A stretch of DNA of 64,000 bases, taken from the NCBI RefSeq assembly GCF_055900595.2, contig NZ_CM148325.1. One strand, written 5' to 3'. Shown here piece after piece: positions 1,213-5,098 of the stretch; position 1 is the stretch's first letter; every line of letters starts with the position of its first letter. A program made the position numbers and the translations under genes. The notes beneath the pieces were generated by a model. That model saw only the letters and a program-made list of their open reading frames with translations. It was not told the origin of the DNA and made no database searches.

Positions 1213-1878
1213 TTAACTCGCCTGCAAAGCGTTGATTTCGGATTTATCTGCCAGTCTTTTCAACAGCATATTGAGTAATACGCCATACATTGGCAGGAAG
1301 AAAACGATACTGATTAACACTTTGAAACAGTAATCGACCAGCGCGATTTCCATCCAGTGTTCAGCCATAAAGGCATCTGGGCTGCGCCAGAAGGCAATGA
1401 AGAAGAAGGCCAGCGTGTCGCTGACGTTACCAAACAGGGTGGAAGCCGTCGGTGCCAGCCACCAGCGACGACTCTGACGCAGGCGGTTAAAAACGTGCAC
1501 GTCGAGGATTTGCCCCAGCGCGTAGGCCATGAAACTGGCGGTGGCGATACGGGCGACAAACAGGTTGAAGTGGGCGAGCGCGCCGAATCCCTGCCAGGAA
1601 CCCATATAGAACAGCGACGAGATGACGTAGGAGATCAGTAACGCCGGGATCATCACCGCAAAGATGATACGACGGGCCAGCGGTGCGCCAAAAATACGCA
1701 CAGTCAGGTCGGTAGCAAGGAAAATAAACGGAAAGCTAAACGCGCCCCAGGTGGTATGGAAACCAAAAATGGATACGGGAAGCTGAACCAGATAGTTACT
1801 GGAGGTGATCACCAACAGATGAAATAACGATAACCAGAACAACGCCTTATAGCGTTGAGTTTGCGAGAAAACGTTCAT
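1213..1878 (-). CDS. yhhQ: Queuosine precursor transporter YhhQ
   Basis: 221-aa polytopic membrane protein, recognised sequence and synteny. Confidence 0.9.
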   Translation of the reverse strand: MNVFSQTQRYKALFWLSLFHLLVITSSNYLVQLPVSIFGFHTTWGAFSFPFIFLATDLTVRIFGAPLARRIIFAVMIPALLISYVISSLFYMGSWQGFGALAHFNLFVARIATASFMAYALGQILDVHVFNRLRQSRRWWLAPTASTLFGNVSDTLAFFFIAFWRSPDAFMAEHWMEIALVDYCFKVLISIVFFLPMYGVLLNMLLKRLADKSEINALQAS

Positions 1879-2098: not shown

Positions 2099-2344
2099 AT
2101 GACCGATCTCTTTTCCAGCCCTGACCACACACTCGACGCACTTGGCCTGCGCTGCCCGGAACCAGTAATGATGGTGCGCAAAACTGTGCGCAATATGCAG
2201 CCAGGTGAAACGTTGCTGATTATTGCTGACGATCCGGCGACGACACGCGATATTCCTGGGTTTTGTACCTTTATGGAACACGAACTGGTTGCGAAAGAGA
2301 CCGATGGACTGCCTTATCGTTATTTGATTCGCAAATCGGGGTAA
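2099..2344 (+). CDS. tusA: Sulfur carrier protein TusA
   Basis: 81 aa; conserved CPxP motif (LGLRCPEPV). Confidence 0.95.
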
Positions 2345-2397
2345 GGTGGATCAGGCTAGCGGACCGATCGCGCTCAATTTTGCGGCTTGCAACCGGT

Positions 2398-2534
2398 TTG
2401 TAGGACGGATAAAACGTTCAAGCTGCATCTGGCGATACGGTGCGCAAGGCCTGATGCGACGCTGTCGCGTCTTATCATGCCTACGAGTTCGATGCCCTGT
2501 GTAGGCCAGGTAAGGCGTTTACGCCGCATCCGGC
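2398..2534. repeat. Cluster of REP (repetitive extragenic palindromic) elements, BIME-like
   Basis: Three imperfect palindromic units of the gcc(g/t)gatgcg...tgtaggcc type between tusA and the next ORF. Confidence 0.75.
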
Positions 2535-2558
2535 ACGCAAACGTAATGGAATGCACAA

Positions 2559-2867
2559 ATGGATTATTTAATTCCAGTTTGTCTGGCATTGCTGGGATTG
2601 CTCGCGATCTTCACCCCCAATTGGCTGATCCCTGTTTTTATCGTCGTGGGGGGATGGCTGGGGGTACTTGCCTGGGGTTGGCTCTGGCTAATGATTTTTT
2701 TACCTTTACTTAACGGTGTCGGGCTTGCTTATGCCCTGTGGTTGATGTTCAAAAGGCCATCCATAGCATCCCGCCTGGTTGCTGCATGCTGTGTTATCTC
2801 CGTCATTCTGATGTTAGCGCTTTATTATGCTTTCCTGACTATGCCGCCGTTCCCGGCCCAGCACTAA
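2559..2867 (+). CDS. Hypothetical small hydrophobic membrane protein (102 aa)
   Basis: ORF with 3-4 predicted TM stretches (W/L/G-rich), sits in an otherwise intergenic gap, followed immediately by a perfect 11-bp stem hairpin; weak SD; not recognised as a named gene. Confidence 0.4.
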   Translation: MDYLIPVCLALLGLLAIFTPNWLIPVFIVVGGWLGVLAWGWLWLMIFLPLLNGVGLAYALWLMFKRPSIASRLVAACCVISVILMLALYYAFLTMPPFPAQH

Positions 2868-2899: not shown

Positions 2900-5098
2900 T
2901 TACTTCCTGCGCAACAATCTTAACGCATTCGCCGTCACCAGCACCGTCGCACCCGTATCTGCCAGCACCGCCAGCCAAAGGCCAGTCATTCCTAACAGCG
3001 TTGTGACGAGGAAGATCCCTTTCAGCCCCAGCGCAATGGTGATGTTCTGGCGGATATTGGCGTGAGTGGCGCGTGCCAGTTCAATCATCTGCGCCAGGCC
3101 GCGCAGGTGGTTATGGGTTAATGCTGCGTCGGCGGTTTCCAGCGCCACGTCTGTGCCACTGCCCATTGCAATCCCTATGGCGGCAGCTTTCATGGCGGGC
3201 GCGTCGTTAATACCGTCGCCGACCATCGCCAGCGGCGCATGTTGATTCAGCTCGGTCACCGCTTTGACTTTATCTTCCGGCAACAGGCCCGCTTTAAACT
3301 CCAGCCCCAACTCCCCGGCAATTGCCGCCGCTGCGCGTGGATTATCGCCAGTGAGGATCACCCCTTTGACACCCAGGGCGCTCAGTTCGCTGATGGCAGT
3401 TGCGGCGTCGGCGCGCAGGGTATCCTGCAATGCAATTACGCCAAGCACGTCATCGTTACGCACCACCAGTACTACCGTTTGCCCGGCGCTTTCCAGTTCG
3501 TTAATTAAACCAGCAAATGCAACAGCCGGATGTTTTCCGGCAGCGCATATCAACACGCGCTCGCCGTTAATCAGTGCTTCAATACCAGACCCGACCAGCG
3601 CCCGCTGTGATTCGGCGGCGGGAATGGCGAGTTCAGCAACCTGTGCTTCGCGTACGATGGCTTGCGCCAATGGATGCGTCGCGCCTTGCTCGACCGCCGC
3701 TGCCAGTGTCAGCAGTTCAGATTCACTAATACCCGTTGCCGGATGAATCGCGGTAACGCGCGGTTTACCGACGGTCAGCGTACCGGTTTTATCAAACGCC
3801 ACCTGGGTAACACGACCTAGTTGTTCCAGCGCCGCACCGCCTTTAATCAACGCCCCACGACGCGCTGCTGCTGCCAGCCCGGAGGTGATCGCCGCAGGTG
3901 TTGAGATCACCAGCGCACACGGGCAGCCAATCAGCAGCAGCGTCAGCCCTTTATAAATCCACTCCTGCCAGCTTGCGGCAAACAGCAGCGGCGGCACCAG
4001 CGTCACCAGCAGGGCGACGGCCATAATCGCTGGCGTGTAAATACGGCTGAAACGGTCGATAAACCGCTCAATCGGTGCGCGGCGCTCTTCAGCTTCTTCG
4101 ATCAGTTTCAGAATCCGGTCAATGGCGCTGGCACCCGGTTCTGACAGCACTTCCAGCGTTACCAGACGGTCTACGCTGGTGGCGCCTGCAGGAACTTTAT
4201 CACCCGTCGCGCGTTCCACCGGAATGGATTCGCCGGTCAGGGCGCTTTCATCAAAACTGGCAAACGGTGAGAGCAGTTTACCGTCGGCAGGTAAACGCCC
4301 ACCCGCTGCGACTTCAATCACATCGCCCGGACGCAGGCTGTTAATTGCTACCTCTTCACGCTTGCCATTACGCAGGCGCGTGGCGGTTTCCGGTTTCAGC
4401 GCCATTAACGCGCTGACCCCTTGACGCGCGCGGCTGGCGGCCCAGCCTTCCAGTCGTTCACCAATCAAAAATAGCAGCAACACCATCGCAGCTTCGGCGG
4501 TTGCGCCAATAAACAGCGCGCCAATGGCGGCTACGCTCATTAACGTTTCAATGGCGAAGTAGCTGCCCGATTTGATCAGCCGTAATGCCTGGCGCACAAT
4601 CGGGTACAGCCCAACCAGCGTGGTCGCGATAAACGCCAGTTGCCCGAACGGATGATTAAACTGCTCCAGACCCCAGCTGATTGCCATCAACACGATTAGC
4701 GTAATCAGCGGCAGATTCTCTTTCAGGCGTGATTCTTGTTGTTCGTCGGCGGACTGTTCATCGCGCAGGGAATAGCCCGCTTTTTGCACCGCAGATTCAA
4801 CTTGTGCACGGATGTCATTGTCGGCATCAACCACCAGTTTTTCGGTGGCGAACAGCACCTGCACCTGATTCACGCCTGCAAGCTGGCGCACGGCATTTTC
4901 TACCTTGCGCGCGCAGGCGGCGCAGTCCATGCCGCTGACTTTCCAGCTATAGCGGGTGCCGGAGACGTTTTCAGAGAGCGTTGGCGTGCTGGAACATGCG
5001 CCGTCGCAGCAACAGTCGTTGGCGTTCTGTGCCGTGGTTAGCGGTTTGAACGCAGCAAAGTGAGGGGCTTTCTTGCCGTTATTGTCAGGAGTCGACAT
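2900..5098 (-). CDS. zntA: Zn(II)/Cd(II)/Pb(II)-translocating P-type ATPase
   Basis: 732 aa; N-terminal GMDCAAC metal-binding motif, CPC in membrane domain, DKTGT phosphorylation motif. Confidence 0.96.
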   Translation of the reverse strand: MSTPDNNGKKAPHFAAFKPLTTAQNANDCCCDGACSSTPTLSENVSGTRYSWKVSGMDCAACARKVENAVRQLAGVNQVQVLFATEKLVVDADNDIRAQVESAVQKAGYSLRDEQSADEQQESRLKENLPLITLIVLMAISWGLEQFNHPFGQLAFIATTLVGLYPIVRQALRLIKSGSYFAIETLMSVAAIGALFIGATAEAAMVLLLFLIGERLEGWAASRARQGVSALMALKPETATRLRNGKREEVAINSLRPGDVIEVAAGGRLPADGKLLSPFASFDESALTGESIPVERATGDKVPAGATSVDRLVTLEVLSEPGASAIDRILKLIEEAEERRAPIERFIDRFSRIYTPAIMAVALLVTLVPPLLFAASWQEWIYKGLTLLLIGCPCALVISTPAAITSGLAAAARRGALIKGGAALEQLGRVTQVAFDKTGTLTVGKPRVTAIHPATGISESELLTLAAAVEQGATHPLAQAIVREAQVAELAIPAAESQRALVGSGIEALINGERVLICAAGKHPAVAFAGLINELESAGQTVVLVVRNDDVLGVIALQDTLRADAATAISELSALGVKGVILTGDNPRAAAAIAGELGLEFKAGLLPEDKVKAVTELNQHAPLAMVGDGINDAPAMKAAAIGIAMGSGTDVALETADAALTHNHLRGLAQMIELARATHANIRQNITIALGLKGIFLVTTLLGMTGLWLAVLADTGATVLVTANALRLLRRK

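Follow-up and report, generated by a model that had tools for sequence, protein, structure and literature searches.

The open reading frame (ORF) at positions 2559-2867 of the window, which is the whole 64,000-nucleotide stretch of contig NZ_CM148325.1 (assembly GCF_055900595.2) that was analysed, is probably a genuine accessory protein-coding gene. Its 102-residue product is a predicted membrane protein that, judged from sequence comparisons, belongs to a previously undescribed family of three branches anchored 3' of tusA. The gene is dispensable in E. coli, and the locus that holds it is polymorphic and decaying. The listing of its product as a hypothetical protein was already known; the evidence for selection, the three-branch family and the picture of a polymorphic locus are new here. 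An earlier note on this DNA had proposed that a real small hydrophobic protein gene occupies the site, and the proposal is supported by conservation of the reading frame, a dN/dS ratio of 0.35 and an enrichment of synonymous changes. The features of the locus and of its relatives are collected in Table 1.

Table 1. Positions of features in the window and, where a comparison locus (L number) is given, on the corresponding contig.
Feature	Position	Strand	Basis or remark
yhhQ	1213-1878	-	ORF list
tusA (sulfurtransferase TusA)	2099-2344	+	ORF list; RefSeq annotation of the 99.8%-identical E. coli locus L001
REP/BIME cluster, tusA-ORF spacer	2403-2538	no strand	Rfam naRNA4 (RF02564); genomic copy number
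GGAA, weak Shine-Dalgarno-like	2548-2551	+	7 nt before the ATG; part of the conserved GGAAT
ORF, 102 aa	2559-2867, including stop	+	ATG 2559, TAA 2865-2867; ORF list; PGAP hypothetical protein WP_032303952.1
G6 homopolymer in ORF	2648-2653	+	Frameshift-allele site; read from sequence
T7 homopolymer in ORF	2695-2701	+	Frameshift-allele site; read from sequence
Perfect 11-bp hairpin	2868-2892	no strand	Inverted repeat (arms 2868-2878 and 2882-2892) between the convergent ORF and zntA stops
zntA (Zn/Cd/Pb P-type ATPase)	2900-5098	-	Convergent neighbour; ORF list and RefSeq annotation
Paralogue P0065 gene, 84 aa	L019 4001-4255	+	Also in L020-L022
Broken paralogue copy	L007 2575-2828		Directly after tusA, upstream of the 102-aa gene
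DUF2004-like gene	L018 3382-3876; L006 3369-3866; L008 3378-3872; L023 1501-1995; L004 688-1176	-

As the earlier note had described, a 102-codon ORF with an ATG start lies between the REP cluster and the 3' end of zntA, and a perfect hairpin with an 11-bp stem follows its stop codon directly. The names tusA and zntA were taken from the RefSeq annotation of E. coli E200086, which is 99.8% identical to the window over positions 2300-2950, a match that marks the window as E. coli DNA. In that genome PGAP annotates the ORF as the hypothetical protein WP_032303952.1, and it does likewise in every other carrier that was inspected, so the suspicion that the gene had been missed in annotation was mistaken; the gene is uncharacterised rather than unannotated. 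The same gene at the same locus is recorded as WP_032303952.1, WP_000385056.1, WP_000385059.1 and WP_171460688.1 (UniProt A0A2K3TTP7 and A0A1M2T030), and these RefSeq records describe a 309-nucleotide coding sequence between tusA and zntA that carries no name, domain or function. Literature searches on the locus, on DUF2004 and on the RefSeq and UniProt accessions returned nothing relevant, and no paper citing the accessions was found.

The 102-residue product is extremely hydrophobic (GRAVY of 1.48), and charged or ionisable side chains are confined to D2, K65, R66, R72 and H102. An AlphaFold2 model with a mean pLDDT of 72 contains four helices (residues 4-18, 24-39, 41-65 and 69-94), which makes the three to four transmembrane helices of the earlier note a reasonable prediction. 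The sole basic cluster is located between helices 3 and 4, and R72 within it is invariant across the subfamilies described below. The three cysteines (C8, C77 and C78) are all variable, and thus none is conserved. The length of the ORF is by itself no evidence for a gene, because ORFs of 89-160 residues also run antisense inside zntA, and it is the comparative data that make the case for more than chance.

To assess coding potential, the ORF was compared at ten loci. These are the window, the E. coli strains THO-008, EC974 and GF4-3, a divergent species representative labelled 'E. coli', and five loci from outside E. coli, i.e. the cryptic-clade isolates Escherichia sp. E1V33 and MOD1-EC7003, E. 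marmotae, E. whittamii and E. albertii. The alleles have pairwise nucleotide identities of 86-98%, and all ten are 309 nucleotides long with neither an indel nor an internal stop codon; the loss of frame in relatives that would have told against a gene is thus not seen among them. Variable sites number 22/16/40 at codon positions 1, 2 and 3. The dN/dS ratio (Nei-Gojobori) is 0.34-0.35, as compared to 0.043 for tusA, 0.017 for yhhQ and 0.042 for zntA, which places the constraint on the ORF about 10-fold below that on the neighbouring genes. When each observed substitution pattern was relocated to a random column of the same consensus base, 26.8 synonymous changes were expected, whereas 41 were observed (p ~ 0.0006), and all ten alleles stayed free of stop codons in only 1.1% of these null trials. 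The constraint is unevenly distributed. In a partition that was chosen post hoc, after the alignment had been seen, the core (codons 40-68 and 80-102) has a dN/dS ratio of 0.15 and codons 21-39 a ratio of ~1.3. Comparisons within E. coli give omega values of 0.16 (window versus L016) and 0.14 (window versus L018). The ORF is under real but relaxed purifying selection, and its conserved core is made up of helices 3 and 4, the basic loop between them and the C-terminal FP(A/P)QH tail. The dN/dS check that the earlier note had proposed thus yields values below 1, both overall and in the core.

Several independent frameshifted or truncated alleles also exist at the G6 and T7 runs of the ORF, each form being present on 1-12 contigs. 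The variant proteins P0038 and P0026 change frame at the G6 run, the truncated 61-residue variants P0034 and P0035 (ending ...MIFYLYLTVSGLLMPCG) fit a T7 to T6 change, and the hybrid-frame variants P0028 and P0030 return to the main frame at the T7 run. By comparison, 427 contigs encode the exact protein of the window and at least 1,000 carry a sister allele. An alternative-frame ORF of 108 residues (2387-2713, plus strand) shares sequence with both the REP cluster and the first half of the gene, and its inner ATG at position 2551 is the start chosen by gene callers for the frameshifted alleles, whose proteins begin MECTNGLFNSS. This ORF is an annotation artefact and no second gene.

The gene is patchily distributed. 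A sensitive blastn search detected it in 317 of 5,426 complete E. coli genomes (~6%), always on the chromosome and in one copy each, and it is absent from the remaining ~94%. In the carriers that were inspected it is located between tusA and zntA. The 317 carriers fall into identity bands of at least 99% (90 genomes), 95-99% (174) and 90-95% (53). In K-12, O157:H7 and ATCC 25922 the match is limited to the REP part and the gene is absent; published ribosome profiling of K-12 and O157 is therefore uninformative. Protein searches found the 102-residue form only in Escherichia, where E. coli, E. marmotae, E. albertii, E. whittamii and unnamed clades carry it at 85-97% identity. A scan of species-representative genomes returned five Escherichia loci; it used Escherichia-specific peptide patterns and is blind to distant relatives. 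E. coli EC974 (L017) has an allele that shares 98.1% identity with the one in Escherichia sp. E1V33 (L005) and only 91-93% with other E. coli alleles, and zntA is unusually divergent among the E. coli strains compared here (94-96%). Together, the cross-species alleles and the divergent zntA suggest old haplotypes or inter-species recombination at the locus.

More distant relatives are likewise linked to tusA. A phmmer search of 1.84 billion representative proteins recovered only the 102-residue family and P0039, a protein of 83 residues that is 40% identical (E-value of 1.3e-6). Its gene begins 35 nucleotides after tusA on contig L004, whose TusA belongs to a cluster named for Superficieibacter. 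The gene was not found in typical Superficieibacter genomes, and P0039 is therefore a rare variant and no genus-wide feature; a search with P0039 alone returned just P0039. A profile search recovered a further, intact paralogue of 84 residues (P0065), which is present on nine contigs in the order tusA, 27 nucleotides, P0065, 172 nucleotides, the 102-residue gene and zntA. P0065 is absent from all complete E. coli genomes searched. A second copy of this kind in the species representative L007 is broken at a run of eight thymines, where the intact P0065 copies have nine, and the split is either a frameshift or an assembly error. The profile-search E-values of ~1e-23 for P0039 and P0065 are circular, as both proteins were rows of the query alignment. 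Independently of them, pairwise alignments of the three forms score 105-153, as compared to 33-38 (standard deviation of 6-7) for composition-preserving shuffles, which is significant homology at identities of 31-40%.

The three forms have common features in addition to their sequence similarity. Each is predicted to contain three or four hydrophobic helices, the last of which follows the sole basic loop, and in all loci examined the gene is positioned immediately downstream of tusA on the same strand. The invariant arginine in the basic loop and a PLLN/N-x-x-G-L motif are common to all three, and P0039 also has a C-terminal FPAQH like that of the 102-residue form. The similarity extends to the ribosome-binding region: TGGAAT is found at the same distance before the ATG in 11 of 11 loci of the 102-residue gene, AAGGAATG occupies the same distance before both short paralogues, and GGAAT is common to all three subfamilies. 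The forms differ at their N-termini. P0039 and P0065 have three predicted helices and start with MK-, whereas the 102-residue form has four and starts with MD-. The additional N-terminal helix resembles the protein's own helix 2 (alignment score of 30 versus 16 ± 3, p ~ 0.002), which suggests that the 102-residue form arose by an internal duplication that would have flipped its N-terminus to the periplasm. The MK- and MD- starts fit an added N-terminal helix that flips the N-terminus outward.

In the window, tusA and the ORF are separated by a REP-filled spacer of 214 nucleotides. The REP-derived Rfam family naRNA4 matches positions 2403-2481 with 50 bits, which is below its gathering score of 59.5, and also matches positions 2504-2538. 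The segment has ~24,000 matches in E. coli genomes and is strongly structured when folded as RNA, and its likeness to the consensus together with its high copy number identify it as a REP/BIME element. Loci differ in how many REP units separate tusA from the ORF and in how these are arranged, and the whole interval from tusA to zntA ranges from 121 to 1,209 nucleotides. On the other side of tusA, positions 2059-2084 of the window (plus strand) contain a terminator-like hairpin and a T7 run (GGCGTAAACTAGCGCC GTTTTTTTAT) ~15 nucleotides before the tusA start codon. A similar sequence precedes tusA in the Superficieibacter-like contig (at about 115-145), and Rfam gives no match for the hairpin and T7 sequence of the window. 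Its role may be that of a leader or attenuator, or else a short upstream transcript may end here.

The hairpin downstream of the ORF begins at the base that follows the TAA codon and ends 8 nucleotides before the zntA stop codon, and thus occupies the 32-nucleotide gap between the two convergent stops. Its 11-nucleotide arms are 100% complementary and enclose a 3-nucleotide loop. The structure occurs once in the window and was matched in none of 100 shuffles, and its calculated folding energy is about -21 kcal/mol on the plus strand and -26 kcal/mol on the minus strand (z ~ -3). There is no T-run within 2 nucleotides of the hairpin on either strand and a terminator scan made no call; a canonical intrinsic (rho-independent) terminator, in which the stem would be joined by such a run, was therefore rejected. 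The hairpin is kept in the eight compared loci that have no DUF2004-like gene after the ORF, apart from single-base differences in the arms in L017, L007 and L019 and a loop that reads TCT instead of AGA in L009, and it is missing wherever a DUF2004-like gene sits between the ORF and zntA. The transcripts of these two genes probably share the hairpin as an end or stabiliser structure.

The DUF2004-like gene encodes 162-165 residues on the strand opposite to the ORF. E. coli GF4-3, the E. albertii type strain and Escherichia sp. MOD1-EC7003 carry it in the interval that separates the ORF from zntA. PGAP labels the gene of 164-165 residues as 'DUF2004 domain-containing', a label that was not reproduced, as current Pfam and NCBIfam gave no match for the protein. 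A sequence search of the PDB also gave no match, and the AlphaFold2 model of the protein is unusable (pLDDT of 42). On the Superficieibacter-like contig, P0039 is followed by a homologue with 58% identity. Two of the 5,426 complete E. coli genomes contain the gene, GF4-3 together with the ORF and 6EVA without it, so that E. coli genomes display all four states, i.e. neither gene, the ORF only (~316), both genes, or the DUF2004-like gene only. Since all four combinations occur, an obligate pair or two-gene module of the toxin-antitoxin type was rejected, and as the two genes are convergent they form no operon. The ORF and the DUF2004-like gene are independent of each other.

These arrangements are most parsimoniously derived from an ancestral order of tusA (+), the small membrane-protein gene (+), the DUF2004-like gene (-) and zntA (-), and later deletions would explain the other states of the locus. 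The deletions differ in extent: in the arrangement of the window the DUF2004-like gene is gone and the hairpin is in place, in the REP-only type (L002) half of the hairpin is left, and in the K-12 type (L003) just 121 nucleotides separate tusA from zntA. The end of ZntA also varies. In hairpin loci the protein ends in LRRK (732 residues), whereas in loci with the DUF2004-like gene it ends in LRRKG or LRKKS (733 residues), as judged by comparing positions 2900-2905 of the window with L018, L008 and L006; the rearrangement that deleted the DUF2004-like gene therefore also altered the zntA stop codon.

Pfam contains no family that matches the ORF protein at E-values of up to 10, colicin and microcin immunity families included, and NCBIfam, PHROGs and PADLOC return nothing above noise for the ORF protein, its paralogues or the DUF2004-like neighbour. 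The monovalent cation/H+ antiporter subunit F model (NF009243, MnhF) scores 17.1 bits against a cut-off of 95 (E-value of 0.0069) and aligns to residues 45-91 only, a match that reflects hydrophobic composition and was rejected. A role as an anti-phage defence or phage protein was likewise set aside, as PADLOC detects none and the best PHROG match has an E-value of 0.18. In a Foldseek comparison of the AlphaFold2 model with the PDB, only generic helical bundles were retrieved, the best with an E-value of 1.3.

Known systems offer partial parallels. KdpF, MgtS and MgtR are single-helix proteins of ~30-50 residues that are co-transcribed or co-regulated with a P-type ATPase pump. The ORF protein resembles them in being small, hydrophobic and encoded near a P-type ATPase gene, here zntA, but differs in its 102 residues and four helices and in the convergent orientation of its gene, and the small gene is tied to tusA even where zntA is not its neighbour (L004). 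YeeD is a TusA-family carrier that is paired with the YeeE/YedE thiosulfate transporter, and in that system a TusA-type gene is likewise positioned directly beside a membrane-protein gene. As compared to YeeE/YedE, the ORF protein is much smaller, has no match to the Sulf_transp Pfam family and contains no conserved cysteine. Because the post-tusA position is kept by three divergent subfamilies in two genera, one can imagine that the small protein partners the sulfur carrier TusA at the membrane, a reading that is very unlikely. Such a partner might hold TusA at the inner membrane or link it to the movement of a sulfur compound, loosely as in YeeD-YeeE, and if it existed it would constitute an unrecognised, lineage-specific branch of the sulfur-relay system. 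With no family match, no adjacent toxin, an orientation convergent to zntA and no conserved cysteine, none of the three functional candidates, i.e. bacteriocin immunity, a ZntA accessory subunit or a TusA membrane partner, is supported.

Three explanations compete with the reading of the ORF as a functional accessory gene. The ORF could be a decaying relic, a gene that once functioned in an ancestral tusA-zntA locus, is now effectively neutral in E. coli and is headed for deletion, its frame being kept open by inertia and shared ancestry. Its absence from ~94% of complete E. coli genomes, the deletions of different extent and the multiple frameshifted or truncated alleles are what such a relic would display, as is a dN/dS ratio of 0.35 that is ~10 times that of the neighbours and is near 1 in codons 21-39. 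We consider this reading unlikely, since constraint persists within E. coli itself (omega of 0.16 against L016 and 0.14 against L018), the core segment has an omega of 0.15, and intact alleles occupy far more contigs than disrupted ones. A neutral relic also fits poorly with ten alleles that diverge by up to 14% in nucleotide sequence and yet contain no indel, and with the synonymous enrichment (p ~ 0.0006) and the rarity of a stop-free outcome (1.1%) in neutral permutations. The same synonymous enrichment and the 22/16/40 periodicity are specific to the frame of the ORF, and they leave it highly improbable that conservation acts on the RNA or DNA, for example on a zntA 3' region or terminator, an antisense RNA or a REP-associated structure, with the ORF being incidental. 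The hairpin and the REP cluster are indeed real structured elements, and chance ORFs of similar length run antisense in zntA. However, the hairpin is outside the ORF, and homologues that are 31-40% identical at the protein level keep the hydrophobic architecture, the basic loop and the Shine-Dalgarno-like motif even though their DNA has diverged.

The remaining alternative concerns what is being retained, and is a narrower form of the speculative role that is given with the main reading below. The protein could be an orphan of the immunity type that protects against a membrane-acting bacteriocin or effector and is kept in some lineages. Small inner-membrane proteins with three to four helices are typical of immunity to pore-forming colicins and microcins, and the colicin and microcin immunity proteins Cei, Cai and Cvi are likewise polytopic and variably present, with a specificity that resides in their transmembrane helices, as is proposed for the ORF protein. 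Presence/absence polymorphism, tandem divergent paralogues, cross-species alleles and a fast-evolving transmembrane segment are also in keeping with such a role. In contrast to those systems, the ORF has no adjacent toxin, lysis or export gene and resides in a chromosomal housekeeping neighbourhood. Membership of the colicin/microcin immunity group was rejected, as there is no family match (no Pfam family at E-values of up to 10) and the neighbours are tusA, zntA and the DUF2004-like gene. A toxin gene is adjacent in none of the loci examined, and the gene keeps its place next to a housekeeping gene in two genera, as expected of vertical inheritance more than of a toxin cassette. An immunity role therefore seems quite unlikely.

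For a functional accessory gene, the following scheme of expression and topology would apply. Transcripts that start at the tusA promoter would run on through the REP cluster into the ORF, because no sigma-70-like promoter or terminator is predicted between tusA and the ORF and the short paralogues begin 27-35 nucleotides after tusA; the strongly folded REP cluster that separates the two genes counts against this model. Translation would initiate at the ATG at position 2559 via the conserved GGAAT, which includes the weak GGAA. The 102-residue protein is predicted to insert in the inner membrane with its K65/R66/R72 loop in the cytoplasm, an orientation that is based on the positive-inside rule. 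The four-helix form would then have both termini in the periplasm (N-out/C-out), and the three-helix forms would be N-in/C-out. The hairpin would mark a shared 3' end, or a stabiliser, of the convergent ORF and zntA transcripts. More speculatively, the protein might act within the bilayer, its helices contacting those of a larger membrane protein, and might serve there as a modulator or an immunity-like protector, with the fast-evolving helix 2 tuning partner specificity, and it might function independently of its DUF2004-like neighbour.

The gene has never been studied, as K-12 does not carry it and no curated family includes its product. The practical outcome of this work is a better annotation, i.e. 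a family definition and a link to tusA, and no major question is touched. The locus itself presents at least five states of one site between core genes (empty, with REPs alone, with the ORF, with the ORF and a DUF2004-like gene, or with the ORF and a tandem paralogue), and thus constitutes a compact natural experiment that could be used to follow the birth, duplication and loss of small membrane-protein genes. If the ORF is translated, its product would be one more lineage-restricted small inner-membrane protein in the accessory proteome of Escherichia.
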